Assembly: GCA_004524535.1 (NCBI GenBank)
Contig: SDNY01000095.1
Span: 1-14,419 of the forward strand
Source of the DNA: Promethearchaeota archaeon
Lineage (GTDB): Archaea > Asgardarchaeota > Lokiarchaeia > Sigyniarchaeales > SOKP01
Direction of reading: 5' to 3'
Length of the DNA: 14,419 nucleotides
A program made the position numbers and the translations under genes. The notes below the pieces were generated by a model, which made no database searches, was not told the origin of the DNA, and worked only from the letters and a program-made list of their open reading frames with translations. Shown one piece after another: positions 1 through 14,419 of the stretch (position 1 is its first letter; every line of letters starts with the position of its first letter).

Positions 1-1514
1 AACCTTAAAGATTCTACTTCCTTCTCGAGTTCCTTTATTCTTTCCTTTAATTTTGCAATTTCATCCATATAATCATCAGAAGTTTTAGGTTTCATCATTT
101 CTTGATACATATTTTTACCTGTTTCCAGCTCTTCTTCAGATTTATTTCCCAAAATTTTATTTCTTCGTTTTTGTAGCTCTCCTACAGTTTGTTCAGACAA
201 GAAATCTAATGGATTGAATCCTGCACCTCCATGTTTGGTTGTTCTCTTTCTCACCTTAATGAAAAGTGGTATACCTATTACAGCTTCTCCACAAATAATC
301 CCTTCCCCTTTATCTAATCCAGAGATATCACCTTCATTCTCTTTACTTAAATCTTCCGCACTTTGTATTGTTATACCAATATCGCGCACATCTGAGAGAT
401 TATGGACAACCCAGGTACCACTTTGAGCTCGAATTGTTACATCAAGGAGTTGTGGTCTCTGTGTTCCTATAACTAGATTTGCACCGAATTTTCTACCCTC
501 TTGGGCAAATAATTTGACAACTTCAGATGTTTCTGTTTTCTTTTTCCCAGCAAATAAGTGTGCTTCGTCTAGAAATAAATAAAATGGAGGGATTTCTCTA
601 CCTGTGCTTGCTTTATATAATTTATTAAGGAGTTTACCTGCTATAACTTCTTGAACCTCAAGATCTAACCCTCTCATATTAATAATCGAACATAATCGTG
701 GAGCAACGATGTCTGTGGCTTCTAAAGAAAATAAATATTCAATATCAACGTCTCCGCTTGGATTCATCTTCAAATCCGTGAATTCAATAATATTATCTGC
801 GAACTCGCTTGCTTTCTCATCTTTAATCTTAGGAGCTTCTTCTATTATTTCCGTTTCTAACTTTTTGCCACAATGATTACATTCGTTTGCATCTTTAGGA
901 ACTTCCTCTCCACACCATGGGCAGAAATCTGATTTGACTTCAAAGGAAGCTGGCTTTTCTTTTTCTAATTCTTCACTAGCGACTTTCAGGGCTCCATATT
1001 CACCATGCCTATCAAGAATAACAACAGGAATTCCTTTTTTCATGAATTCTTCGCAAAGTACACCCATAGTATAAGACTTACCGCTTCCAGATTTTCCAGT
1101 AATAAAAATACGACCAAAATTTTTTACTAAAAGATTCACTTCAAACCCATAGCCTAGCAATTTACCTAAAGAAATTGATCTCTCTGGAGGATTGAATATA
1201 CCGAGTACTTTACTAATTTGTTCCATAGTAGCTAAATATACTTCACTTCCAGGTTCGAAAGGCTTTTTTGGATGTTCACCTAAAACTGTAAGCTCTGCTT
1301 GTGAGCCCTTTTTATCTTTCCACATCTCCAGAATACTCAATATATAATAATTCCTTGTCCCGTCTTTTTTTTCTTCTCCATAAACCGTAAAATAATTATT
1401 TCGTGAAACATTAGGACTTGTAATGATCATACTTACTTTAGAGATTGTCGTTTTCCCTATTAATCGTCCAATAGGTTCTCCAGCCCCTTCAATCAAATCT
1501 TCTTCTTCCGACAT
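1..1514 (-). CDS. HerA/DUF87-family P-loop ATPase with internal Zn ribbon and C-terminal coiled coil (3' end beyond the window)
   Basis: Hand translation from ATG 1514 (MSEEEDLIEGAGEPIGRLIG...) stays open to base 1, at least 504 codons. It shows a HAS-barrel-like N-terminus (PFEPGSEVYLAT), Walker A GKSGSGKS (1074-1097), ILDRHGEY, Walker B FYLFLDEAH and EGRKFG..IGTQRP. A GTGA RBS-like motif lies 7 nt upstream. Not listed in the ORF track. Confidence 0.9.
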   Translation of the reverse strand, partial: MSEEEDLIEGAGEPIGRLIGKTTISKVSMIITSPNVSRNNYFTVYGEEKKDGTRNYYILSILEMWKDKKGSQAELTVLGEHPKKPFEPGSEVYLATMEQISKVLGIFNPPERSISLGKLLGYGFEVNLLVKNFGRIFITGKSGSGKSYTMGVLCEEFMKKGIPVVILDRHGEYGALKVASEELEKEKPASFEVKSDFCPWCGEEVPKDANECNHCGKKLETEIIEEAPKIKDEKASEFADNIIEFTDLKMNPSGDVDIEYLFSLEATDIVAPRLCSIINMRGLDLEVQEVIAGKLLNKLYKASTGREIPPFYLFLDEAHLFAGKKKTETSEVVKLFAQEGRKFGANLVIGTQRPQLLDVTIRAQSGTWVVHNLSDVRDIGITIQSAEDLSKENEGDISGLDKGEGIICGEAVIGIPLFIKVRKRTTKHGGAGFNPLDFLSEQTVGELQKRRNKILGNKSEEELETGKNMYQEMMKPKTSDDYMDEIAKLKERIKELEKEVESLR

Positions 1515-1521
1515 AAAAAAA

Positions 1522-1528
1522 TCACTTT
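1522..1528 (-). promoter_or_regulatory. Putative ribosome-binding site AAAGTGA of the HerA-like gene
   Basis: GTGAT matches the archaeal SD consensus GGAGGTGAT. The same AAAGTGA occurs 7 nt before gap (2746-2752) and 5 nt before the hdrA TTG (12399-12405). Confidence 0.55.
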
Positions 1529-1680
1529 TATAATCTCTTTTAATTTTTTTATTTTAATACCATTAGATATTAACTATAATTGACAACTTAAAAAGGGTAT
1601 TTAAATCTTTAATAGTCTAAATTTTCATTTTTAATTTTCAAATTAATTTTACTCTAAATTACTTATCGACTTAACCAATT

Positions 1681-1699
1681 AAGAAAAAAAGAAAAAAAA
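1681..1699 (-). terminator. Putative oligo-U terminator downstream of gap
   Basis: T8-C-T7-CTT tract on the minus strand about 30 nt after the gap stop; typical of archaeal intrinsic terminators. Confidence 0.4.
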
Positions 1700-1730
1700 T
1701 ATTATTTTATAAATAAATTTAATTTAGATA

Positions 1731-2738
1731 CTATAATTTTTGGACGATTAAATCTGCCATTCTATTTGAATATCCCCATTCGTTATCGTACCATGAAACT
1801 ACGCTAATTAAATTACCAATAGCTTTTGTCCAGAGACTTGAGAAAATTGAACTTGCGGGATTTCCAACAATATCGGTACTCACAATTGGATCATCAGTGT
1901 ATTCTAAAATTCCCTTCAAAGGACCATCGGCAGCTTCTTTCATTTTAGCATTAACTTCATTTGCAGAGGCTGCTTGAGCGACGTTAACTTTTAGATCTAC
2001 GACACTACCATTAGGAGTCGGTATACGCATCGCAATCCCATCTAATTTTCCTTGTAATTCTGGAAAAACTAAACCAATTGCTTTTGCCGCCCCTGTAGAT
2101 GTTGGTATTATATTTGCGGCAGCCGCTCTTCCTCTGATCATTTTATCTGGTTCCCCTGACCTTGCTGTATCAACGGTTCTCTGATCTCCAGTATATGAAT
2201 GGACAGTTGTCATTATTCCATTTTGTATATTAAAACTATCATTCAAAACTTTAACAACTGGAGCTAAACAATTTGTTGTACAGCTCGCATTAGAGATAAT
2301 TTTATGATCAGCAGTTATTTTATCATCGTTGCATCCAATTACTACTGTTATGTCTGGATCTGTAGCGGGAGCACTAATTAATACACGTTTAGCACCAGCT
2401 TGTAGATGTTTTGATGCACCATCTCTATTTACAAAAAAACCAGTAGATTCTACAGCAACGTCAATGTTATTACTTCCATGTGGTAAATTTGCTGGGTCTC
2501 TTTCAGCTGTTATCGGAATTGTTTTTCCATTTACAATTAATGAATTTGATCCCGCCTCCACAGTTCCCTTGAATCTTCCGAAAACTGAATCATACTTTAA
2601 AACATACGCCAAATACTTAGGTTCAAATAAATCATTAATAGATACTACTTCAATCTCATTGGGATATTTCTCAGAAAGAGCTCTAAAGAAGTTCCTTCCG
2701 ATTCGTCCGAAGCCATTTATTGCAACTCTTTTTACCAT
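1731..2738 (-). CDS. gap: Glyceraldehyde-3-phosphate dehydrogenase, class I (bacterial/eukaryotic type)
   Basis: INGFGRIGR, catalytic ASCTTNCLAP, TTVHSYT, IIPTSTGAAKA and SWYDNEWGYSNR; 335 aa. Confidence 0.97.
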   Translation of the reverse strand: MVKRVAINGFGRIGRNFFRALSEKYPNEIEVVSINDLFEPKYLAYVLKYDSVFGRFKGTVEAGSNSLIVNGKTIPITAERDPANLPHGSNNIDVAVESTGFFVNRDGASKHLQAGAKRVLISAPATDPDITVVIGCNDDKITADHKIISNASCTTNCLAPVVKVLNDSFNIQNGIMTTVHSYTGDQRTVDTARSGEPDKMIRGRAAAANIIPTSTGAAKAIGLVFPELQGKLDGIAMRIPTPNGSVVDLKVNVAQAASANEVNAKMKEAADGPLKGILEYTDDPIVSTDIVGNPASSIFSSLWTKAIGNLISVVSWYDNEWGYSNRMADLIVQKL

Positions 2739-2778
2739 TTTATTATCACTTTATTTTTTTAAATGGTACTTTATGTGA

Positions 2779-2811
2779 AAATTAGTGATTTTATATTATG
2801 TTCACTAATTT
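2779..2811. promoter_or_regulatory. 10-bp inverted repeat around a TATA-like element upstream of gap
   Basis: AAATTAGTGA(2779-2788)-N13-TCACTAATTT(2802-2811). The spacer reads ACATAATATAAAA on the minus strand. Confidence 0.35.
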
Positions 2812-2962
2812 ATTAATTTTTTAGATTTCTAAGAAATGTAAAAAATAAGTCTAAAAAATGAATACTTCTTAAATTAAATAAAAAGAATAACCAAGTTCTT
2901 AAATTAATTTATTGAATTTTAAGATTATTAGAAAAAATTGATTAACATTATTTTAAAATAAT

Positions 2963-3745
2963 TTAAATTTCTTCCTCTTCTTCTCCAATTTCTTTCCCCA
3001 TTAATCGAAGAACGGAATCAGCTAATTTGTTTTGACTATAACTCTTGATACCTTTGATTTTTCCTTCCTTTCCAAGAACCCGTAACATAATTCCATTCCA
3101 AACTGAGGACGCTTCTCCCTTCACTTTTTTAAATCGGTCTCTAAAAATTTTAACACTAATATTGTCGTAATTTTTTGATGCTTCAGAACATTTATAACAT
3201 AAAATACATTTGTCCTCATCAATTGCCAGATTATTTCCTTCCCGAGACAATGCACCTGTAGAACATTCCTCTGCAAATTTTTCTATTAAATTTGTATCTT
3301 TTTCATTACAAGTAATTTTAATACTTCCTTCAACTACTTTACGGACTTTCTGACCACTCTCCAAAGTCCGTACTTCTTCCTCAAATTCGGGAAGTGAACC
3401 ATTATCAACTAAGTTTAATTTCTTTTCGTCATTAATAAACAACTCTAATGTATATCCGGGGCAAATCCAGGTGCAACATCCACACCATATACATTTATCA
3501 GTGTCAACTACAATTTTTAAGTCCGACTCAACTCTCATCTCCTCTGGTGTTCCAATTGCGGTTCTTTTCAGAGGTATCTCTTTTCCTTCAACTTCCATGG
3601 TTGTAACGGGACACACTCTATGACAAAATCCACATTCAATACATTTTTCCTCGTCGTATCTTAGAACCATATCATGATTGAGCATCTTATATTCATAATT
3701 AGTGATATTTCCTTCCTTGATTGCTTTTTTTGATGGTAATGCCAT
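2963..3745 (-). CDS. 4Fe-4S polyferredoxin (FwdF-like), probably three clusters
   Basis: CIECGFCHRVCP and CIWCGCCTWICP, then a degenerate repeat with EECSTGAL and CILCYKC; 260 aa. The FwdF resemblance is by eye only. Confidence 0.75.
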   Translation of the reverse strand: MALPSKKAIKEGNITNYEYKMLNHDMVLRYDEEKCIECGFCHRVCPVTTMEVEGKEIPLKRTAIGTPEEMRVESDLKIVVDTDKCIWCGCCTWICPGYTLELFINDEKKLNLVDNGSLPEFEEEVRTLESGQKVRKVVEGSIKITCNEKDTNLIEKFAEECSTGALSREGNNLAIDEDKCILCYKCSEASKNYDNISVKIFRDRFKKVKGEASSVWNGIMLRVLGKEGKIKGIKSYSQNKLADSVLRLMGKEIGEEEEEI

Positions 3746-3863
3746 TTTATCTCAGTTCGAATTTTTCTTATTATAATTAAATATTAATTGAAAATAATAA
3801 AAAAATTTTGATTATAAGATTATAAATTTCAAAAGACAAATTTTTTTATAGAATTGATTTCTT

Positions 3864-4373
3864 TTATTCTAAAAATTTCAAACCTTCTTTTGCTTGCTCA
3901 TTATTCGGGTTAATCTCAAGAACCTTCTTGTAACATTCAATCGCTTTCGGAGAATTTTGTAATTCTTTATAAGAATCTCCCATAATTCTAAATACAGCCT
4001 CGTAGTTAGGTCGAACATTAGGCATTTTAAGATCGACTTTAAGTGATTTCTCTAAACTTTTTATGGCTTCCTTATAATTCTTTAGGTGATAAGAAGAGAA
4101 TCCTAATCCAAACCATGCAAGAACAAAGCTGGAGTCGACTTTAACCAATTTTTTATATGTTTCATATGCTTTTTGATAATTTTCTAAACTTAAATAAGCA
4201 GACCCTGTGTTATATAACGCCATACGATGCTGCTGTTTATCTTTTAAACCGAGTTTAATCGCATTTTCATAACTTTCAATCACCTTTGGATAATCTTTTG
4301 CTCTAAAATGAGCCCCTCCATCTCCATACCAATATTCAGCATCTTTACCATTTATTTCTTTAGGCATTTTCAA
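3864..4373 (-). CDS. Tetratricopeptide repeat protein
   Basis: About four TPR units (ALYNTGSAYLSLENYQKAYETYKK, AWFGLGFSSYHLKNYKEAIKSLEKSL, KAIECYKKVLEINPNN). Start could be the TTG at 4373 or the ATG two codons later. Confidence 0.88.
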   Translation of the reverse strand: MKMPKEINGKDAEYWYGDGGAHFRAKDYPKVIESYENAIKLGLKDKQQHRMALYNTGSAYLSLENYQKAYETYKKLVKVDSSFVLAWFGLGFSSYHLKNYKEAIKSLEKSLKVDLKMPNVRPNYEAVFRIMGDSYKELQNSPKAIECYKKVLEINPNNEQAKEGLKFLE

Positions 4374-4452
4374 TATAACCTTTTAAATTTAAATTTCTTC
4401 TATATTTTTATGTTATTAAAATATTGAAAAATCATGGATTAGATCAATAAGG

Positions 4453-4914
4453 TCATGAAAATTGTAACCACTCGTCAAGAAGAATCCAATTTTTCAACGT
4501 CGCAGGTTTTACTTTTACTATATTACCACTAACTTTAATATATCCATGGGGGCTTGGTTCGCCTTTTTCTACTTTTCTTAAGTAATAAAAAATTAATATA
4601 ATACCAGCCACACCTATGCAAAAGGTTATCAAAGCTGGAAGGGCACCAATAGATGCTGCGGAAAATAGTGCAAAAATTACAATAACAGGAGAAAAAGCTA
4701 AGATGCAGCATATTATATCCTCTTTTGAAGAATTATAAAGTCTTTTCTCTTCATAATCCTTAAACTGTTTATGACATCCTGTACATACAGGTAATGTAAT
4801 ATATCTAGTTTGAGAAAGGTTAGTATGACGAAACCATCGAAATTTAATTTGTACATCCATATGATTATACATTTCTGTAGCATAATTAAGTCCACATTTG
4901 ATACATTTAACCAT
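4453..4914 (-). CDS. Hypothetical membrane protein with CxxC..CxxC Zn-finger-like N-terminus and two TM helices
   Basis: CIKC and CTGC pairs plus a long hydrophobic hairpin (IICCILAFSPVIVIFALFSAASIGALPALITFCIGVAGIILIFYYL). Ends in TGA used as an ordinary stop. Confidence 0.7.
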   Translation of the reverse strand: MVKCIKCGLNYATEMYNHMDVQIKFRWFRHTNLSQTRYITLPVCTGCHKQFKDYEEKRLYNSSKEDIICCILAFSPVIVIFALFSAASIGALPALITFCIGVAGIILIFYYLRKVEKGEPSPHGYIKVSGNIVKVKPATLKNWILLDEWLQFS

Positions 4915-5094
4915 AATTATTCAATTCAGCATCTTTTTTATTAATGAAATTATAAATATATCTTTTATAAGTCTTTTCAAAATTGTAAAAAAATTAAAGA
5001 CCAGATAGATCTTAAATAGATCTCAGAAAGTAAAGAAAAATTAGCTAGTTATTTTTATGATAATTTATTTATCATCTCATAAAAATTATTAAAA

Positions 5095-5307
5095 TTAATC
5101 GAGTGAATTTGTTTTTTTTTTTGGCTCGAGACCTATTGCATCAAAAACCCCTAATTTTTCTTCAACTGCTAGGATTTGAGACTCTTCTAACTCATCACAA
5201 TCTTTTTTCTCGAACTCAAGCTTGCAAGATGGACAATCAAACGATTCTGTATAATCCACGATATCTTTATTGCCACATCGAGGGCAATGGTATTTTTTTT
5301 CAACCAT
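5095..5307 (-). CDS. Small Zn-ribbon (CPxCG-type) protein
   Basis: CPRCG..CPSC motif in a 70-aa ORF with an ATG start, on the same strand as its neighbours. Confidence 0.75.
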   Translation of the reverse strand: MVEKKYHCPRCGNKDIVDYTESFDCPSCKLEFEKKDCDELEESQILAVEEKLGVFDAIGLEPKKKTNSLD

Positions 5308-5325
5308 CTTTTAAAGAATAAATGA

Positions 5326-5550
5326 ATAAAGCCCGAATATAAAGGAAGGGGCATTTTCTCGGCTTTAAATAATATTGGTCAGTTATATGCAAATTTGAAT
5401 GGAATAAAATATTATGAAGGAACCGGGATTTGGCTAATAAATCAAGATGCTATTGATGCTGTAATGCCTCATTGTCAAACAAACAGAAAATTCGTTGTAT
5501 TTCAAAAAAGAATAAAAAAAACAAAACCTAATTTTAAAATAGTAGGGTGA
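5326..5550 (+). pseudogene. C-terminal remnant of a GNAT-family acetyltransferase
   Basis: 74-codon open frame with no upstream start, IKPEYKGRGIFSALNNIGQLYANLNGIKYYEGTGIWLINQDAIDAV...*. It carries the GNAT acetyl-CoA motif A (PEYKGRGI) and a motif-B-like W..N..A. An in-frame TGA precedes it (5323-5325). Confidence 0.65.
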
Positions 5551-5582
5551 TTGTTAAAAGTAAGTTAAATATCAAATATCTT

Positions 5583-7079
5583 TTAAAAGCGTCTATCCGT
5601 TTTAAAAGGAACCACATCACATGTTTCCATATACCAAGTAAGCATCCGTTCTTTGAGATTTAGAAGTATGTCTTTATAGTTTGGGTCATCTATGACATTA
5701 TTTAATTCTCCAGGATCTTTCTTCAAATCATACAACTCATCTTTTTCATAAATACGTTTGATATATTTGAAATCTTTCGTTCTACACATGGAAGCCTTGC
5801 CATGATATGGTTCCTCATCGGTTAATTGTAATCTTAAACGCGGCCAATAAAGATCCTTGGATTTTGGCCTACTTTCTTTTTCCATAGCATGTTCTTCACC
5901 ATAAAGTCGGCCACCTTCGCTGAATACAGCATCTCTATGCTCATTTTCCTTACCTTCAAGTAAAGATATCAAACTTTTACCAAAATGGGTATAATTAGGT
6001 TTGAGACCAATGAGATCATATACAGTTGCACTAAAATCTACTAATTCAACCAAAGCATTAGAAATCCGCGGTTTTATAGAAATATTTTGTGGTGGTTTTA
6101 TGATAAAAGGAACTCTTGTAAGGCAATCTTCAAGTGTGTTCTGAGTCTTTTCGACTAATCCATAATCCCCTGTGAAATCTCCATGATCAGAAAAAAAGAA
6201 TATCGCGCTATTATTGTATAAATTAGCTTTTTTTAGCTCTTCAATTATCATCCCAAATTGATGGTCTAAGCGAGCACACATTCCATAATATGTTGCCCGC
6301 AATTCATCCCATCGATCTTCTGTCCATCCTTGGAGGTTTTGCCCTTCATATATTCCTTTCAAGATCGCAGGCTTTTTTGACCAATCATCTGGTGCCTTTA
6401 TTCTAGAAGGTAGTTTTTTGCGATTTATTTTACTAAACCAAGGTTCTTCAATCCCATAAGGCGGATGAGGATTCATTAAGGCAAAATACATGCAGAGGGG
6501 TTTCTCCTGTTTATACTCTCTGATAAAATCTGATGCGCCTAATATCATTGCCCAGTCGAAATCAAAATAAATGTCATCCCCTTTTTTATCTAATTTACCC
6601 GCGTGAAAACTATAATAATTATCATCATCTGGTTCTCCACGCCATTTTTGAGAGAGATGAGGACTTGGTTTCCATTTATGGCCCCAGCGAGCAAGATCTT
6701 CCTTTGATGGCCAATATTTCACGTCACATATATCCAAGGGATCTTGCTCTGCAGTTATGAGATCATTTCTAAATCCCCACCATACAAAGTATCCATTATC
6801 TTTAAGAATTTTCAATAAATTTGGTTCGTTTCGATCGAGATGAAGCATATGATACATCGTTCGATGACCGCGAACATGAGGATACCAACCTGTCATAAAA
6901 CTGCAACGGCTTGGAGTACACACAGGATTCTGACAGAATGCATTGCTGAATGAAACTCCATCTTCTTCAACAATTTTATCAAAATTTGGAGTTTCGGCAG
7001 CGGGATTGTCCATGTGCCCCAGAACATCACCCCGCCATTGATCTACATTAAATATAATAATATTTGGCTTTTGATTCAT
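5583..7079 (-). CDS. Cys-type (formylglycine-dependent) sulfatase
   Basis: PNIIIFNVDQWR, signature CTPSRCSFMTG, PHPPY, FSDHGD and ELYDLKKDPGELNN; no signal peptide evident. Confidence 0.93.
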   Translation of the reverse strand: MNQKPNIIIFNVDQWRGDVLGHMDNPAAETPNFDKIVEEDGVSFSNAFCQNPVCTPSRCSFMTGWYPHVRGHRTMYHMLHLDRNEPNLLKILKDNGYFVWWGFRNDLITAEQDPLDICDVKYWPSKEDLARWGHKWKPSPHLSQKWRGEPDDDNYYSFHAGKLDKKGDDIYFDFDWAMILGASDFIREYKQEKPLCMYFALMNPHPPYGIEEPWFSKINRKKLPSRIKAPDDWSKKPAILKGIYEGQNLQGWTEDRWDELRATYYGMCARLDHQFGMIIEELKKANLYNNSAIFFFSDHGDFTGDYGLVEKTQNTLEDCLTRVPFIIKPPQNISIKPRISNALVELVDFSATVYDLIGLKPNYTHFGKSLISLLEGKENEHRDAVFSEGGRLYGEEHAMEKESRPKSKDLYWPRLRLQLTDEEPYHGKASMCRTKDFKYIKRIYEKDELYDLKKDPGELNNVIDDPNYKDILLNLKERMLTWYMETCDVVPFKTDRRF

Positions 7080-7217
7080 GAAACATCATTCGTATTAATT
7101 AGCATTTTTTATAATTATTGACTCATAATTTTTCACACATAAAAGCTATTATATCAGATTGAATCTTTTAACTATTTAATATCTTTTCTCTTTTTCTTAT
7201 CATCGGATAAGTAATAA

Positions 7218-8321
7218 TTATAGCTTTCCTTGTTTTATTTTTCCCTTCAATTTTAATTCATTAAAAATCTCTTCATCAACTTCTATTCCTAACCCCGGTT
7301 TAGTCGGAAGCTTTATACGACCATTTTCAATTTTAGGTAAACCAATAAATAAATCTTCTAAAAAGGGTTTTCCTCCAGCATATTCTAATGGGAGAGTACA
7401 ATTCATTGTAGAAGCACAAATGTGGAGATTTGCCAAATTGCCGATTGTAGGTTGAGTTTGATGAGGTAAAATAGTTTTATTAAAAATTATCCCTAAATCA
7501 TTTATCCGTCTCATCTCAGTTATACCCGCACACTTTACTACATCGGGCTGTATGATATCAACTTGAGCTTTTTGTATCAAATCCAAAAATTGCCATTTTG
7601 TATATTCATGTTCTCCAGCAGAGATGGGAACATCTAAAGCCTTCACCACTTTCTTTAATCCTTCATAATCATATTGCGCTACAGGTTCCTCAAAATGAAA
7701 TATATCTAATTCCTCAAATTTTCTCCCTTGTTTTATTGCACCCTGAACAGAATACCCATTATTTGCATCAAAACTTAACGGAATTCCTTTATCTAGAATA
7801 GAACGAACTGCTTTAAACATTTCAAAATCTTTCATAAGATTTTTATCTCTTCTCATAGAACCCCAATCCATTCGAATTTTAAATGCTCGGAAACCCTCCT
7901 CAAGTTTTTGCTCGACTCTTTTAACCATTTTTCTTATAGATTGATAAGCTCCGAAACCAATACTTGCATATTGCTGATATTTCTTTTGATATGCACCACC
8001 CAATAGAGTATAGATGGGTAAATTACATTTTTTTCCTTTAATATCCCATAATGCAATATCAATTCCGGCAATAGCTTCGGGTTGGATTCCTTGCACACCT
8101 TGTTTATACGTATTGAAAAACATCTCATTCCATAGCTTTTCAATTTCTAAAGAATTTTTTCCAATCAACATCGGTTTTAATGTTGTTTCTATAAAATTTG
8201 CTATAACTTGGCAATTCATAGGAGAGCACTCCCCAACCCCACTTAATCCTTCATCCGTAAAAACCCTAACAAAAATGGATGTTCCTAATACGATATAAGT
8301 CTTAACATCGATAATTTTCAT
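7218..8321 (-). CDS. Mandelate racemase/muconate lactonizing enzyme family protein (likely acid-sugar dehydratase)
   Basis: AGIDIALWDIKGK..LPIYTLLGG, KxR motif (FKIRM), metal ligands DAN / EEP / GE, IIQPD and PTKPGLGIE. Confidence 0.92.
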   Translation of the reverse strand: MKIIDVKTYIVLGTSIFVRVFTDEGLSGVGECSPMNCQVIANFIETTLKPMLIGKNSLEIEKLWNEMFFNTYKQGVQGIQPEAIAGIDIALWDIKGKKCNLPIYTLLGGAYQKKYQQYASIGFGAYQSIRKMVKRVEQKLEEGFRAFKIRMDWGSMRRDKNLMKDFEMFKAVRSILDKGIPLSFDANNGYSVQGAIKQGRKFEELDIFHFEEPVAQYDYEGLKKVVKALDVPISAGEHEYTKWQFLDLIQKAQVDIIQPDVVKCAGITEMRRINDLGIIFNKTILPHQTQPTIGNLANLHICASTMNCTLPLEYAGGKPFLEDLFIGLPKIENGRIKLPTKPGLGIEVDEEIFNELKLKGKIKQGKL

Positions 8322-8646: not shown

Positions 8647-9786
8647 TTAAACTTTTTCTAACTCCATTTCTTGAATTGCTTTACCCGACCTAAATGGTGT
8701 GTCATCAATAGACTCTCCAGGGCAATAACCAAATTTTTCGTTAAAGGCTTCGTTTAGTGACATAAAATACAGAGATAAGGGTAAATTCTGCGGACAGTTA
8801 TTATAACAATTACCACATTCTACACAGCGGTCCGCAACGTGCGCTATTCTAGTTAATTGATAAGTTTCTTTATTTATGGTTTTTTCTTTTCTCTTTTTCG
8901 AGAGAATGCAATCTACGCAGTAGCATACTGGACATCCTCTAATACACATGCCACACATGGTACATTGCAAAAGCCTTTCTATTTTCTCCTTTTGGGGCAC
9001 ATTAGCCCATTCTTCAAGATCCTTGGCCCTTTTTGCTTTTGCTTTCTCAAGAATTTCGTTCATTTTTTCTGAATTTGCATTTTTAACATCATCTGAAAGC
9101 GGTTTCTTTTGGATTTTAGATTTTTCTAAAAGATCGTTTCCTTTATCAGAATATACTTTCAAGATTATCTCATCAGAATCAATAGGAATTCCAATATCGC
9201 TTATAGATAAATCTGCGATAACTGGAGTTTTTCTACTACATCTAAGACAATTTTCAGAAGGTTGAATCCCTGTCTCTTTAGTACTGCCGTCGTCAAACTT
9301 AAAGATAAGACCGTTATCATTGATTTTTTCCTTAATAATTTTAGTAGGATCTATATCTTTTAAATTTTTTAACTCACGACCAACATTGACAGCCATTCCT
9401 CTATCTTCAATCCCAATAATAAACAAATTATCCAAGTTAACTTGTTTGATTTTAGCGAGTTCAATTAACGCTCTTGTATCGCAAGGACGAGCTATAAGAC
9501 CAATTTTTTCAGTTAAAGCGCCACCAACTGATTTATGTAAATATTTAGCAGCGGAATCGGTTCTAGCATAGCCATATGCAATAAAGTTAGTTAGAGGAAA
9601 ATTTTTCGCTTCTTCAGGGTTATCAATCAAGTTTGGAGAAATCGTAAATCGATCAACACTGCCTGACTTTTTATCTACTCTTTCTTGAGCACTAATTATT
9701 TTATCAACTATTTTTTCTTGCAATAATGTACTCAATAACTTTGGGAAATCTTCAATTTTTATAAGATATTCTGCTATTATATCCAA
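8647..9786 (-). CDS. FdhB/FrhB-family coenzyme F420-dependent oxidoreductase beta subunit with C-terminal 2[4Fe-4S] domain
   Basis: IARPCDTRALIELAK..QVNLDNLFIIG, ENCLRC, ADLSI, CTMCGMCIRGCPVCYCVDC and DRCVECGNCYNNCP; TTG start. Confidence 0.85.
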   Translation of the reverse strand: MDIIAEYLIKIEDFPKLLSTLLQEKIVDKIISAQERVDKKSGSVDRFTISPNLIDNPEEAKNFPLTNFIAYGYARTDSAAKYLHKSVGGALTEKIGLIARPCDTRALIELAKIKQVNLDNLFIIGIEDRGMAVNVGRELKNLKDIDPTKIIKEKINDNGLIFKFDDGSTKETGIQPSENCLRCSRKTPVIADLSISDIGIPIDSDEIILKVYSDKGNDLLEKSKIQKKPLSDDVKNANSEKMNEILEKAKAKRAKDLEEWANVPQKEKIERLLQCTMCGMCIRGCPVCYCVDCILSKKRKEKTINKETYQLTRIAHVADRCVECGNCYNNCPQNLPLSLYFMSLNEAFNEKFGYCPGESIDDTPFRSGKAIQEMELEKV

Positions 9787-9885
9787 TTATTTCCAACTCT
9801 TTTTTTATTAGATTATATGATTTATCTTATCAAAATTCTTTTCCAATGACTTTTTAATTTTTTAAAAATTTTAATTTAAATTTTC

Positions 9886-9959
9886 TATGCGTTAATGGAG
9901 CAACCATTTCTTCAGCTGAGTTCTCATTTTTTTAACTCAGCATCATTAGCTAACACATA
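9886..9959 (-). promoter_or_regulatory. Eukaryote-like (Loki-type) SECIS element in the 3' UTR of mvhD
   Basis: The minus strand reads UAUGUGUUA-GCUA-AUGAU-GCUGAGUU-AAAAAAAUGAG-AACUCAGC-UGAA-GAAAUGGUUGCUCCAU-UAACGCAUA. This gives a 9-bp lower helix, an AUGA/UGA tandem G.A core, a perfect 8-bp upper helix and an A-rich apical loop, directly after a gene with in-frame TGAs. Confidence 0.88.
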
Positions 9960-10418
9960 TTATGTTTTTGCTTTTCCTTTGGCTTTTTTCTTTTCAGTTG
10001 TGCCGCCTTTAGGTCTTAAAGGGCTTGGTCCTAGATCTCTTATTTTTTTATCGAACTCAATTGCGATTTCCCTAAATTTTGAACCTTCCGCTGAACTACA
10101 GAATTCCATTCTAATTCTTTCGGGCTCTAATCCAACCGCTTTAAGAACTTCAGTTATATATTCGGTGAGTCGATAAGCAAAATAATTACCCGTCTCAAAA
10201 TCACATTCATTTGGGTATCATCCAACAATTAACACACCATCAGCGCCTCTTCCGAAGGATCTCATTACTAGATCAGAACCAACTCTTCCCGTACAAGGAA
10301 CTAAAACAGTTCTTAATGATGGGGGATACTGTGCACGAATAGTTCCCGCCATATCAGCTCCGCCATATCCTCATTTCAAACATAAAAACGATAAAATTTT
10401 AATATCATTTTCTTTCAT
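9960..10418 (-). CDS. mvhD: MvhD/VhuD [2Fe-2S] subunit, selenoprotein with two Sec (U16, U67), 152 aa
   Basis: Hand translation: MKENDIKILSFLCLKUGYGGADMAGTIRAQYPPSLRTVLVPCTGRVGSDLVMRSFGRGADGVLIVGUYPNECDFETGN...GLEPERIRMEFCSSAEGSKF...LGPSPLRPKGGTTEKKKAKGKAKT*. Both TGAs align with conserved MvhD Cys (CxxC and GC). Missing from the ORF track. Confidence 0.95.
10218..10220 (-). other. In-frame UGA = selenocysteine U67 of MvhD
   Basis: DGVLIVG-TGA-YPNEC matches the family motif DGV.v.GC....C. Confidence 0.9.
10371..10373 (-). other. In-frame UGA = selenocysteine U16 of MvhD
   Basis: FLCLK-TGA-GYGGAD matches the family motif F.C.WC.Y..AD. Confidence 0.9.
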
Positions 10419-10431
10419 TTATATCCCCTCT
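10419..10431 (-). promoter_or_regulatory. 13-nt hdrA-mvhD spacer with RBS (AGAGGGGAT)
   Basis: Purine-rich SD-like sequence between the hdrA TAA and the mvhD ATG. It is too short for a promoter or a SECIS, which implies co-transcription. Confidence 0.65.
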
Positions 10432-12393
10432 TTAATCCTCCAATACCAATAATTCATCGATATAAGCGTTATATTGAATATCTCTGTAATAAGCCAATTC
10501 TATTGCTTTGGAAGGACAAATAGCAGCACAACTTCCACATCCTCTACAACTTATGAGATCTACTATTATATTTCCTTTTTCATTTACCGAAATAGCTGTA
10601 TAGGGACATGCCTCTATACATTTATAGCATTTAGCACATCTTTCATCAGAAGGTTCAGCTCGAATTAATTCTATAGAATAATCTCCTCTTCCCATTGGTA
10701 TACTAGCTGATGATGCGGCAGCTTTTGCTTGGCTTACAGAAAGCTCAATTGATTTTTGACCTTGACACGATCCTGCTAAAAATATTCCTGGAACTTTAGT
10801 ATTAATAGGATCAAGGCGAGCGTGTCTTTCTTTTAAATAACCATCTGGAGTTTTTTCAATATTCATAACTTGAGCGATCTCATTAGTACCTTGCGAAGGC
10901 AGCGAAGCCGATGATAAGATGACCATATGGAATTCGCTGGTAATTATTGTATCAGTTCCGACAGGTTCAAATTGAACGAGTAGATTTTTCGTTAAGGGAT
11001 CTTCTTCGATTTTTCCAATCATCCCTTTAATAAATGTTATACCAGCCTCTCTAGCTCTTCTATAATATTCTTCATAAGCTTTTCCAGCACATCTCATATC
11101 AATGTAATTTACAACTATATCGGAATCTGGATATTCTGATTTTATGAGTTTTGAATTTTTAACTGATAAATTACAACATACCACACTACAATATGGATTT
11201 GTGTTTACATCTCTCGATCCTACGCAATTAATAAACAATATTTTACTAGGTCGTTTCCTATCAGAAGGTCGTTTTAAATGTCCAAAAGTTGGGCCATTTG
11301 GAGCTAAAATTCTTTCAAGCTGAATTTGAGTTATAACATTCTCATAAATTCCATACCCATAATCATCACCTTGATAAAGATCCCAACCCGTTGCAACTAT
11401 TATCGTTCCAACCTCTAATTCAACGATTTCGTCCTGCATACTGAAATCTATTGCTCCTGTATCGCAAGCATCTTTACATGCAAAACATTCTACGCAAGAA
11501 TTTCTAACTATATCAGAAACCGCAGGAACCGCCTGAGCAAAAGCTATATCAATTACTTTCCTTGCAGATAAATTTTCATCAAAATAGTTAGGTACATAAA
11601 TTGGACAAACTTCTGTGCAGGCTCCACACCCCGTACACAACTCCTCATTGACGAATCGACTTTTACGTCTTACTTTAACGTTAAAATTTCCAATATATCC
11701 ATCCACTTCTATAACTTCACTATAAGATAAAATATCAATATTAGGATGGCGTTCTGCCTCTAACATTTTTGGTCCCAATATTCATATTGAACAATCATCT
11801 GTTGGGAATGTCCTATCAAGTTGAGACATTCTTCCTCCGGTTGTAGTATTTTTTTCAATTAAATATACTTTATACCCTGCATCACCTAGATCAATAGCTG
11901 CGGATAAACCAGCAATACCCCCGCCAATTATTAATGCAACTGGCTTTACAGGTACAACTTTTATTGGAATGTCTTCTAATAATCGAGCCCTTGAAACGCT
12001 TGCCTTAATCAACTCAATTGCTTTATTATCTGCTTTATCTCTTATTTCTGGATCTTGATGTACATAACTGCAATGTTCTCTAATATTAACAAATTCTAGA
12101 TATCTCTGTGGTAGTCCTGCTTCCTTCAAAATTGCATGAAAGACAGGTTGGTGCGTTAATGGAGTGCATGCAACGACTACTATTCGATTAAATCCTTTTT
12201 CCTTGATCTGTTCTTTAATATATTCAGAACCTCCGGAGGTACACAGGTTAAGATAATCCCACGCCCAAACATTTTCTAACTTATCGATTTCTCGTACTAA
12301 TTTTGGAACGTCTAGAATACCAGCAATGTTAATTCCTCAGCGGCACACGAAAACACCAATTTTCAAATCGTCTATGGTCTGATTTTCAGACAA
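10432..12393 (-). CDS. hdrA: Heterodisulfide reductase subunit A, selenoprotein with two Sec (U19, U204), 653 aa
   Basis: One frame from TTG 12393 (MSENQTIDDLKIGVFVCRUGINIAG...) joins track ORFs 11782-12129 and 10432-11778 through two TGAs. Motifs: VVVACTP, NIREHCSYVH, FAD-binding GGGIAG, TFPTDDCSIUILGPKM, CVGSRD..YCSVVCC and four CxxCxxCxxxC. An in-frame GTG at 12402 is an alternative start. Confidence 0.95.
11782..11784 (-). other. In-frame UGA = selenocysteine U204 of HdrA
   Basis: TFPTDDCSI-TGA-ILGPKM matches the TFPT.DC..CIL.PKM motif, the known Sec site of methanococcal HdrA. Confidence 0.92.
12337..12339 (-). other. In-frame UGA = selenocysteine U19 of HdrA
   Basis: KIGVFVCR-TGA-GINIAG matches the conserved N-terminal motif IGV(Y/F)VCxCG.NI. 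Confidence 0.88.
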
Positions 12394-12540
12394 TTTTTTC
12401 ACTTTTTTTAGTTATAACCTTATATTATTATTCTAAAATTATATTGATGATTATGTAAATAGTTCTATCATTATAAAAATAATTATTATAAATAATTGCT
12501 ATTTAATTAAATTCTAATCTTAGAAGACGAGATACTTAAA

Positions 12541-12568: not shown

Positions 12569-13111
12569 TTATTTGCTTTCATAATCCTCAATTATTTCGC
12601 CAAATAATCGCTTTACTGCATCAATACGGGTCTCTTCACCAATTTGCTCTACGTCTTTGAGCGAAATGGCTTCCTTTGGGCAAACAGCAATACATTGAGG
12701 TTCTCTTTTTCCAACTTCTGGGTCGATAAATTCCTCTTTCATTCCCTCACATAGATCGCAGATTAATGCTTTCTGGGTCTCCATATGAAACGAGATCACT
12801 CCAAAATCGCAGCCACGGATGCAAAATCCACATCCATTGCATTTATCATCATCAACTAGTATGGAACCTGTGTTAGGATCTTTTTCAAGAGCATGTTCGG
12901 GGCAAGCTCTAATACATGGAGCATCATCGCATTTTTGACATGCGAGAGCAATATTAAAGATTGGTTCTATTCGAACTCTATGAATTCGGGCGTTAATTGG
13001 TTGAAATTCTCCGTCATGAACAAATGAACATACAGACTCACATGTCTCACACCCAGTACAGAGGTTCGGATCAACAATAATAAAGCTATGTACCTTTTTC
13101 TTAGTCGCCAT
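12569..13111 (-). CDS. 4x[4Fe-4S] electron-transfer subunit (DmsB/HydN-like) of the aldehyde oxidoreductase
   Basis: CTGCETCESVC, CQKCDDAPCIRACP, CNGCGFCIRGC and CDLC..PQCIAVCP. Its ATG directly abuts the aor TAA (TAAATG), suggesting translational coupling. Confidence 0.9.
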   Translation of the reverse strand: MATKKKVHSFIIVDPNLCTGCETCESVCSFVHDGEFQPINARIHRVRIEPIFNIALACQKCDDAPCIRACPEHALEKDPNTGSILVDDDKCNGCGFCIRGCDFGVISFHMETQKALICDLCEGMKEEFIDPEVGKREPQCIAVCPKEAISLKDVEQIGEETRIDAVKRLFGEIIEDYESK

Positions 13112-14419
13112 TTATTTCTTTCCTCCGCTCTTCTCTAATTTCCCAATAACAAAATCTAATCCTAATTTTTTTAAAGTTTCATCTGTAGGAATACCTGTAT
13201 TTTCGTCCCATCCTCTTGCTTTATAATATCCTGATAGCAATGTTTGATATCCTTTTTCTTCTAAAGTAACTCCCTTGGTTGGACCTCTAGTGTGAGCTTG
13301 CTTGAAAAACCTTTCTGGTGGATGATCATCATCTCTTGTCCAGCCTGCTCTTACATTGAAACATTTTGAAAGAGTTACTATTGCATCTCCCCTCACGAGC
13401 ATAGTTTCATCAGTATGAGGAATACCCGTAACAAGTTCGAATACTTTAACCATCTCAGCGTCATTCTCATAAATACCTCTTGTGAATTTGCAAATAATAT
13501 AGGAGTCTATTAAAGCATATACATCTTCAAGTCCTTTTATAGCTTTTCCTCTCTCAACGGGTTTTTCATAACCAAATCTATCAAATGTTCCTTTCGCATC
13601 TAAACCATATGCACCATTCCTTAAATGACATGCACCTCGTATTGAAACACTTTCTCCAACAGCAAACGAAGTCATTCCATGGAGGTCAAATGCTGGCATT
13701 TCTAATCCTTTTATTTGCATTGCATAAAAACTTGCGTTTTTTCTCCCCTTTTCTTCGAGTCTTTTTCCAGCTTCTCTACTACCATCACCAAAGATCTCAC
13801 CAGCAAAACCTTTCCCTAGAATCATTTCTTCATTAAATCGAACTAGATTTTTAGTTGAGCCAAATGGTAATTCATATCCTAAATCGTCTTTTGTTATTAT
13901 CCCCTCTTCATAAAGATCACATGCCATCGCACATGTAACTCCTCCCGAAATAGCATCAATTCCTAAATCATCGCATTGAGTAATACATTTAAAAATAGTT
14001 GGCCAATCATCATTACCACACGCGGTGCCATATCCATATACTAACTCAACATCAACACTTGCTACAAGATTTGGATAATCAGGATGGCTTTTAGGGATTC
14101 TTGCTAAATGATCACATGCAATGGAACATTGAGAACATGCGACTTTTTTAACAATCCACTCTTCATTTAAAACTTCTCCATTTACTATACTTTCGCACTT
14201 ATCCCAGGTTCCTTCACGCATATTATTTATAGGAAACATACCAAGTTTATTATAACTGAGAATTCCCGCAGGCGTACCTTGATCACGGTATTTTGCTGTC
14301 GCAGGACCATTAGCGACTTTAATTAGTTTCTTAGCAATTTTGTAAAATTCTACTGGATGTGCAACTTTGGTTCCTTTTGTACCTCTAAAAGCTATAGCTT
14401 TAAGGTTTTTAGAACCCAT
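13112..14419 (-). CDS. aor: Tungsten-dependent aldehyde:ferredoxin oxidoreductase family protein (5' end beyond the window)
   Basis: MGSKNLKAI (an internal motif, so this M is not the true start), ACSQCSIAC, CDDLGIDAISGG, KGLEMPA, RGACH, ICKF and YYKARGWDENTGIP. Confidence 0.93.
   Translation of the reverse strand: MGSKNLKAIAFRGTKGTKVAHPVEFYKIAKKLIKVANGPATAKYRDQGTPAGILSYNKLGMFPINNMREGTWDKCESIVNGEVLNEEWIVKKVACSQCSIACDHLARIPKSHPDYPNLVASVDVELVYGYGTACGNDDWPTIFKCITQCDDLGIDAISGGVTCAMACDLYEEGIITKDDLGYELPFGSTKNLVRFNEEMILGKGFAGEIFGDGSREAGKRLEEKGRKNASFYAMQIKGLEMPAFDLHGMTSFAVGESVSIRGACHLRNGAYGLDAKGTFDRFGYEKPVERGKAIKGLEDVYALIDSYIICKFTRGIYENDAEMVKVFELVTGIPHTDETMLVRGDAIVTLSKCFNVRAGWTRDDDHPPERFFKQAHTRGPTKGVTLEEKGYQTLLSGYYKARGWDENTGIPTDETLKKLGLDFVIGKLEKSGGKK

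Follow-up and report, generated by a model that had tools for sequence, protein, structure and literature searches.

The window analysed here is the entire 14,419-base contig SDNY01000095.1 of a Promethearchaeota archaeon (assembly GCA_004524535.1), whose genome of 3.66 Mb is distributed over 198 contigs and has 30.4% G+C. All long genes of the window lie on the minus strand. They include a tandem of hdrA and mvhD followed by a structured RNA element. The element is very probably a Loki-type selenocysteine insertion sequence (SECIS), located in the 3' untranslated region (UTR) of a bicistronic hdrA-mvhD mRNA and directing four UGA codons of both genes to be read as selenocysteine (Sec).

The hdrA gene (heterodisulfide reductase subunit A-like; 10432..12402, minus strand) has 656 codons from a GTG start to a TAA stop in an open reading frame (ORF) with TGA read as U. 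UGA occurs in frame at residue 22 (12339-12337) and again at residue 207 (11784-11782), which is the canonical CSIU position, and Pfam assigns 4Fe-4S and FAD/pyridine-nucleotide oxidoreductase domains to the product. The mvhD gene, or vhuD (9960..10418, minus strand; 152 codons), starts with ATG 13 nt downstream of the hdrA stop and ends with TAA at 9962-9960. It codes for a protein of the FlpD family (PF02662, E 1.7e-41 in Pfam) with in-frame UGAs at 10373-10371 (residue 16) and 10220-10218 (residue 67). Both frames are fully open if UGA stands for Sec. No base separates the mvhD stop from the 74-base element (9886..9959, minus strand), which adopts a three-helix fold.

Structure and conservation of the element

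The minimum free energy (MFE) fold of 9886-9959 (-19.1 kcal/mol, z = -2.98, 2 of 200 shuffles folding as well) contains all three helices, each on the minus strand like the genes. The basal helix P1 is built from the 5' strand UAUGUGUUA (9951..9959), adjacent to the TAA, and the 3' strand UAACGCAUA (9886..9894); 9959-9951 pairs with 9894-9886 in 9 bp that include one U.G wobble (9955/9890). The loop GCUA (9947-9950) leads from P1 to the 5' half of the core, AUGA (9943..9946, inside AAUGAU 9947-9942), which is positioned 13 nt past the mvhD stop. The upper helix P2 consists of U9942 plus GCUGAGUU (9934..9942) and of AACUCAGC plus U9914 (9914..9922). GCUGAGUU (9941-9934) is perfectly paired with AACUCAGC (9922-9915) through 8 Watson-Crick bp, and U9942.U9914 is the ninth stem position. 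P2 is capped by an apical loop of 11 nt, AAAAAAAUGAG (9923..9933), with an A-run on its 5' side and AG at its 3' end. The 3' half of the core, GA (9912..9913), lies inside UGAA (9914-9911) and is followed by the linker AGAA (9908-9911). Four nucleotides after GA comes P3, a side hairpin AUGG/CCAU with the loop UUGCU (9895..9907) that abuts the 3' strand of P1. G9944.A9912 and A9943.G9913 would be tandem sheared G.A pairs.

A sequence-only reading of this DNA, made by a model without database searches, had described the AUGAU/UGAA core, the perfect upper helix and the A-led apical loop as they are given here. It had also placed a 9-bp basal helix right after the TAA. This helix is present in the window, but only 7 of its 9 pairs are retained in most orthologues. 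The side hairpin at 9907-9895, on the 3' side of what it took for an internal loop, was overlooked.

A permissive pattern search for AUGA, a stem, an A-rich loop whose last letter is G and a subsequent GA or AA gives 34 matches in the genome and 23 in the reversed genome. Such a pattern does not discriminate by itself and covariance models were therefore used. Model R1 was built from eight seed elements of the source genome, the window element among them. The leave-out model R2 rests on 37 other elements, without the window element and its two closest orthologues. Both models match 9893-9950. R2 scores 40.1 bits at the window element (E 4e-8, filters off) and its next best match in the 14.4-kb window reaches 11.4 bits (E 0.29). 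The sequence-only reading had proposed a check with eukaryotic and Loki SECIS models; R2, a model of Loki-type elements, gives the match above, and the Rfam models of eukaryotic SECIS yield none.

The letters of the core and of the apical loop are conserved beyond the window. AUGA is kept in 39/39 distinct elements of a diverse set, paralogues included, and in 73/73 orthologue rows. In the core GA the second letter is A in all 39 distinct elements, the first being G in 33, A in five and U in one. The apical loop has A at three positions and G at its last position in 39/39, with A preceding this G in 36/39. Pairing is supported by covariation. In the 39 elements, 98.0% of the P2 and P3 cells are paired (54.1% when shuffled, 40.9-51.0% when slid) and 12/12 pairs are changed on both sides, a value that 0 of 500 shuffles attain. 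Taken separately, changes on both sides are found in 8/8 pairs of P2 and in 4/4 pairs of P3, the latter with 95.6% of cells paired. The 73 distinct orthologue rows have 99.5% of P2 cells paired with compensatory changes in 7/8 pairs, so that the covariation expected by the sequence-only reading at orthologous loci is indeed found. The orthologue core of P1, AUGUGUU/AACACAU, is paired at 86-99% per pair with conserved sequence in these 73 rows. In paralogues and in other families the position of P1 is paired by other sequences (CCGAA/UUCGG, CUCCAUA/UAUGGAG, CCACCAC/GUGGUGG). A closing helix of at least 6 bp is found in 22 of 34 dissimilar representatives versus 21.8% of swapped pairs. Note that a flank-shuffling test of P1 is weak in A/U-rich flanks, where for 9 of 40 elements no more than 10 of 200 shuffles did equally well.

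The invariant letters bear on a different identity for the element, that of a C/D-box-like small RNA or of a generic L7Ae-binding kink-turn whose role, for example in translational repression, is apart from Sec. The consensus of the C box is RUGAUGA and that of the D box CUGA; the window copy has AUGAUGc in its 5' half and CUGA in its 3' half, which resembles both, and a snoRNA family of Rfam (ceN65) matches the 221 bases around the element with 15 bits (E 0.88). This score compares with a gathering score of 48, and the letters beyond UGA and GA vary in the family: AUGA is followed by A in 18, U in 16 and C in three of 39 elements, and the base before GA varies too. Neither a second box pair nor a guide region was seen on inspection of the 74 nt. 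Such an RNA would moreover leave unexplained the link of the element to UGA-containing genes, and this identity is considered highly improbable.

Association with UGA-containing genes and proposed decoding as selenocysteine

The occurrence of the element follows that of in-frame UGAs. R1 detects nine elements in the source genome at E < 1e-3, eight of which are found directly after ORFs with in-frame UGA. These hosts are three mvhD genes, selD, a vhuU-like C-terminal hydrogenase fragment and three ORFs without Pfam family above cut-off. The contrast is sharp among the 15 MvhD-domain paralogues, where an element stands behind 3/3 genes that have UGA at two conserved Cys positions and behind 0/12 of the Cys-type genes; the apparent extra UGAs of the latter are ordinary stops at ORF edges. 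Given this 3/3 versus 0/12 split, the covariance model can serve as a practical tool to find selenoproteins in the family of the source genome.

Some of these elements have features of their own. The one at C51:13106-13162 (+), after the vhuU-like ORF (motif YDCULSCAAH), overlaps the gene end, and the vhuU-like gene apparently stops at the UGA that lies in frame within the AUGA core. A core UGA that doubles as the stop of its gene is described also for VhuU.1 of Lokiarchaeum in the text of Mariotti et al. 2016 (PMC4989117). The elements at C36:5665-5721 (-) and C37:8560-8617 (+) follow small ORFs with one UGA each and without Pfam family above cut-off. The context is SDSUTMAFCG in one of these ORFs and GGGGUGC in the other, whose product is a predicted membrane protein; both are candidate selenoproteins that belong to no named family. 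Contig C103 bears two elements about 1.28 kb apart, at 8880-8937 (-) and 7598-7655 (-), with near-identical upper helices. Upstream of the first is a 164-codon ORF without Pfam family that has two adjacent UGAs (SGCUUEQV). The pair may stem from a recent duplication, or may give the upstream gene a second signal.

The association extends to the 80 closest hdrA loci from public genomes, whose HdrA proteins share 74-95% identity with that of the window. These loci come from 59 metagenome-assembled genomes (MAGs) named Promethearchaeota or Promethearchaeia, 10 MAGs with other Asgard candidate-phylum names and 11 records of 'uncultured archaeon', in agreement with the Asgard origin that had been deduced from the sequence. 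R1 has a match after mvhD in 73 of the 80 loci. The other seven comprise three that end at a contig edge, three with a variant seen by eye and one Cys-type fused hdrA without mvhD. The element is conserved behind Sec-type mvhD and was not found behind the Cys-type paralogues of the source genome, so that neither of the two findings named by the sequence-only reading as refuting it is seen. One of the three variants (L128:4560-4640) has UUGA in place of AUGA in an element that is otherwise intact. In CP070831.1 a relative of hdrA without UGA runs on into a 466-codon frame, with neither mvhD nor element after it. The match of R1 adjoins mvhD in 28/28 loci of the same family. The best MvhD orthologues (59-99% identity) all carry two UGAs, as do the 69/69 mvhD ORFs delimited by script (no ORF was delimited in 5/74 loci), and the AUGA begins 11-21 nt past the stop.

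The in-frame UGAs could in principle be premature stops in decaying pseudogenes, with the hairpin as a relic. Four in-frame stops in two adjacent genes are what this would predict. The UGAs stand, however, at conserved Cys-aligned positions (CWKUGYG/CLKUGYG, xxGUYPx) in 69/69 orthologues, the frames are otherwise open, and neither frameshifts nor scattered stops were seen in the orthologues, so that decay of the genes is extremely unlikely.

R1 finds 3-12 copies per genome in 35/35 genomes of the same family and R2 finds the element in 25/25. In the sister family f2, R1 matches 0/14 genomes, and across other families sampled in the phylum R2 matches 1/125. The first-look candidates were scored in part (150 of 4553 for R1 in the source genome and 36 per genome for R2) and the absence of a match means that no element was found with that model. 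The mvhD elements of the sister family have other loop sequences. Likewise, elements of Sec-type mvhD from other Lokiarchaeia families (loci L076-L085, L088 and L089) have three arms with other loops, for instance an apical loop with GUAAAC... and a third arm with NGCAA or GCA, and are missed by both models.

The four UGAs of the window are located 271, 424, 1835 and 2390 nt upstream of the element and are spread over 2.1 kb. No local hairpin was found 3' of any of them: the 60 nt after each UGA have z = -0.09, -1.13, -0.54 and +0.18 relative to shuffles. A distal signal is therefore needed. R2 detects no second element in the window and a single element must thus serve the four codons; there is one copy for the hdrA-mvhD pair. 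These results leave an extremely low probability to the opposite arrangement, in which each UGA would have its own local hairpin of bacterial type in the coding sequence and the 3' element would be incidental.

The genome codes for the proteins expected of an archaeon that uses Sec. It has aSelB (TIGR00475, 245.6 bits, with an aSelB_III domain), SepSecS (484.8 bits) and a Sec-containing selD with its own element. In the proposed mechanism AUGA and GA would form tandem sheared G.A pairs and a kink-turn, in which the basal helix would be the C helix, the upper helix the NC helix and the 5' strand the bulged one. The A-rich loop of 11 nt would be placed one 9-position stem above the core. The small hairpin would lie in the non-bulged strand and probably stacks on the basal helix, as does the third helix of a k-junction. 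Recognition of this fold, by a protein or by the ribosome, would bring aSelB with Sec-tRNA(Sec) to the distant UGAs. Stop codons close to the element would stay stops, according to the minimal-distance idea of Mariotti et al. (PMC4989117).

The place of the element, directly after the last gene, also fits a hairpin that serves 3'-end stability or termination only, the UGAs being decoded otherwise, either by genome-wide reassignment or by near-cognate read-through. Archaeal transcription terminates at oligo-T runs, and the U5 run at 9864..9868 (minus strand), 18 nt 3' of the element, is a possible oligo-U termination signal judged by its letters. For decoding by other means it could be added that tRNA-Sec is not found above threshold. 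Neither role accounts for a fold with invariant AUGA, GA and loop letters that stands after UGA-containing genes in 8/9 cases of the source genome and behind 0/12 Cys-type MvhD paralogues. The presence of aSelB and SepSecS speaks against decoding by other means. UGA is not globally reassigned, since it closes other frames such as the ends of four MvhD-domain paralogues. A stability or termination hairpin combined with another mode of UGA decoding is accordingly held to be very unlikely, and a SECIS for both genes remains the preferred interpretation.

Several points weigh against this interpretation. The Rfam scan gave no SECIS family at E <= 10 on the whole window or on the 221 bases at 9780-10000, where all matches are at chance level. 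The sequences of R2 were selected and aligned by R1, whose seeds included the window element. P1 and P3 are conserved in sequence among orthologues and are neutral on pairing there; support for P1 across paralogues is moderate. The ninth element of the genome, C103:7598-7655 (-), follows a DUF5714 gene without in-frame UGA. A candidate tRNA-Sec (C188:21811-21899, minus strand) is found beside SepSecS with aSelB about 3 kb away, and has a CUUCAAA anticodon loop (anticodon UCA) and a long variable arm of 6 bp, but it is weak, scoring 24 bits against the Rfam cut-off of 47, and its 3' part folds oddly. ARAGORN reports no tRNA-Sec in the genome or beside SepSecS, and the three whole-genome matches of RF01852 are ordinary tRNA-Arg, tRNA-Ser and tRNA-Gly. 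No SBP2-like protein was found in the genome, in which just two short ORFs (125 and 131 aa) have an L7Ae domain; an absence of SBP2 in these archaea is reported also in the texts of Mariotti et al. 2016 (PMC4989117) and Huang, Xiao and Zhang 2024 (PMC11227280). The Asgard SECIS described in the texts of these two papers rest likewise on computation. As to expression, contigs 88-99% alike lie on the stretch 9700-12450 in two sediment metagenome runs and in two runs of metatranscriptome libraries; another run contains every sampled word of it and may be its source. The RNA-library contigs of relatives (88-99% alike; two runs of one study) span the mvhD stop into the element (9899-10081), and further ones from both runs span the hdrA-mvhD junction. 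This RNA-library support is weak because the contigs show neither strand nor transcript ends and the libraries can contain DNA.

Relation to known SECIS types and the third arm

Standard SECIS tools fail on Lokiarchaeota, for which the 'lokiSECIS' was described by Mariotti et al. 2016 (Mol Biol Evol, PMC4989117). According to the text of that paper it is found near the stop codon and is composed of AUGA, a 9-bp stem, an apical loop of 11 nt and then GA. The first five letters of the loop are mostly A and its last G is ultraconserved, usually after A. Tandems of hdrA and vhuD have a single lokiSECIS, located after vhuD, and hdrA never ends in UGA, which is explained by a minimal-distance model for stops near the element. 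The window element has every feature listed there, including its place as sole element after vhuD, and the window hdrA ends in UAA as the minimal-distance model predicts. It has in addition the basal helix and the 3' side hairpin, of which the 2016 main text makes no mention, and it probably comes from a different family within the order.

Huang, Xiao and Zhang 2024 (ISME J, PMC11227280) present a type I eSECIS-like model for Asgard archaea. Its core is GA_[G/A]A, its upper stem measures 7-15 bp and tolerates up to 2 mismatches, its apical loop has 8-20 nt and a ministem is lacking. In their text hdrA and frhD/mvhD share one element. The window element fits this model in its core, upper stem, loop and shared use. 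The model as published comprises core, upper stem and apical loop only, whereas the window has in addition a covarying hairpin with an invariant loop G 3' of the core. The attribution of this layout to Lokiarchaeota by the sequence-only reading agrees with both descriptions.

The class of the element, its place after hdrA-vhuD and its shared use over two genes are thus already published (2016, 2024), and the window copy is a further member, from a family where this exact form is ubiquitous. Taken alone it adds little, because class, position and two-gene reach were known from these papers. It is one more well-supported copy of an RNA signal that links archaeal and eukaryotic Sec decoding.

The label of eukaryote-like layout, given by the sequence-only reading, holds for the AUGA..GA kink-turn type; it does not extend to the Rfam eukaryotic models, which the element fails to match, nor to the third arm, which is extra. 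The element shares with eukaryotic type I SECIS the AUGA...GA core, an A-rich apical loop with unpaired A's, the 3' UTR site, distant action on several UGAs and a basal helix below the internal loop. It differs by an additional hairpin on the 3' side of the internal loop and by a shorter upper helix of 9 positions, the latter as had been remarked from the sequence. It falls outside the eukaryotic SECIS family in the form that Rfam models. The same reading had set the element apart from the methanogen and bacterial types, rightly so on the present data. The SECIS of VhuD in Methanococcales and Methanopyrus, as described in the text of Mariotti et al. 2016 (PMC4989117), have AUGA ... GAC/AAC flanking the main stem, a motif found also in the window and associated with the same gene (vhuD). 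On inspection, the window element has none of the GAA_A bulge, the GC-rich lower stem of 10 bp and the GC upper stem of 3 bp of methanogen SECIS. Unlike in bacterial SECIS, the UGAs of the window have no own hairpin in the coding sequence.

The third arm goes beyond the earlier descriptions as given in their main texts. Its central loop G (G9901) is found in 38 of 39 distinct elements and in 73/73 orthologue rows, and C9900 is nearly invariant. A P3-like arm is present in 11 of 19 loci of other families; in the other eight the descriptor parsed no element. No such arm is described by the two papers of 2016 and 2024 or by a 2026 review in their main texts (figures and the supplement of Mariotti et al. 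lay outside the comparison), and no paper joining 'SECIS' and 'three-way junction' was among the matches listed by a literature search for SECIS with Asgard and with three-way junction.

The k-junctions presented by Wang, Daldrop, Huang and Lilley 2014 (NAR, PMC4005666), known from TPP riboswitches, offer a comparison. The likeness, at the level of secondary structure only, is that P3 is flanked by the GA on one side and by the 3' strand of P1 on the other. P3 abuts P1 and coaxial stacking of the two is therefore possible. The differences are that the k-junctions known from that text are not in recoding signals and that here a 4-nt linker parts GA from the third helix. A tentative proposal, for which the balance tips slightly to the doubtful side, is that the Loki-type SECIS is a three-way k-junction rather than a two-helix eukaryote-like hairpin. 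Its third arm (loop G invariant, usually GC or GU), situated in the non-bulged kink-turn strand, kept with covariation across the selenoprotein genes of the family and seen in other Lokiarchaeia mvhD elements, might then be a determinant for the archaeal SECIS reader (L7Ae/L30e, aSelB or the ribosome) that was lost or replaced en route to the eukaryotic SECIS and SBP2. With its basal helix, kink-turn core, 9-position stem and covarying third arm, this compact RNA of ~74 nt offers a defined object for studies of binding and structure that aim at the SECIS-reading factor of archaea, where no SBP2 exists.

Neighbouring genes

The element is followed by a gene that codes for an FrhB/FdhB-like protein with Fe-S motifs (8647-9786, minus strand; Pfam). 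The order hdrA-mvhD-SECIS-frhB-like is conserved, since similar ORFs come after mvhD in the loci of three relatives (L128, L147 and L157). Within the frhB-like coding sequence, at 9040-9101 (-), Rfam reports matches to SNORD72 (24.4 bits, E 8.5) and snoR53Y (21.2 bits), which are far under the gathering scores and probably due to chance. The remaining stretches of the window, 3-8321 and 12569-14419 (both minus strand), encode the C-terminal part of an aldehyde:ferredoxin oxidoreductase, a 4Fe-4S protein, an enolase-superfamily enzyme, a sulfatase and a TPR protein, as well as another Fe-S protein, GAPDH and a HerA-like ATPase with a zinc ribbon.

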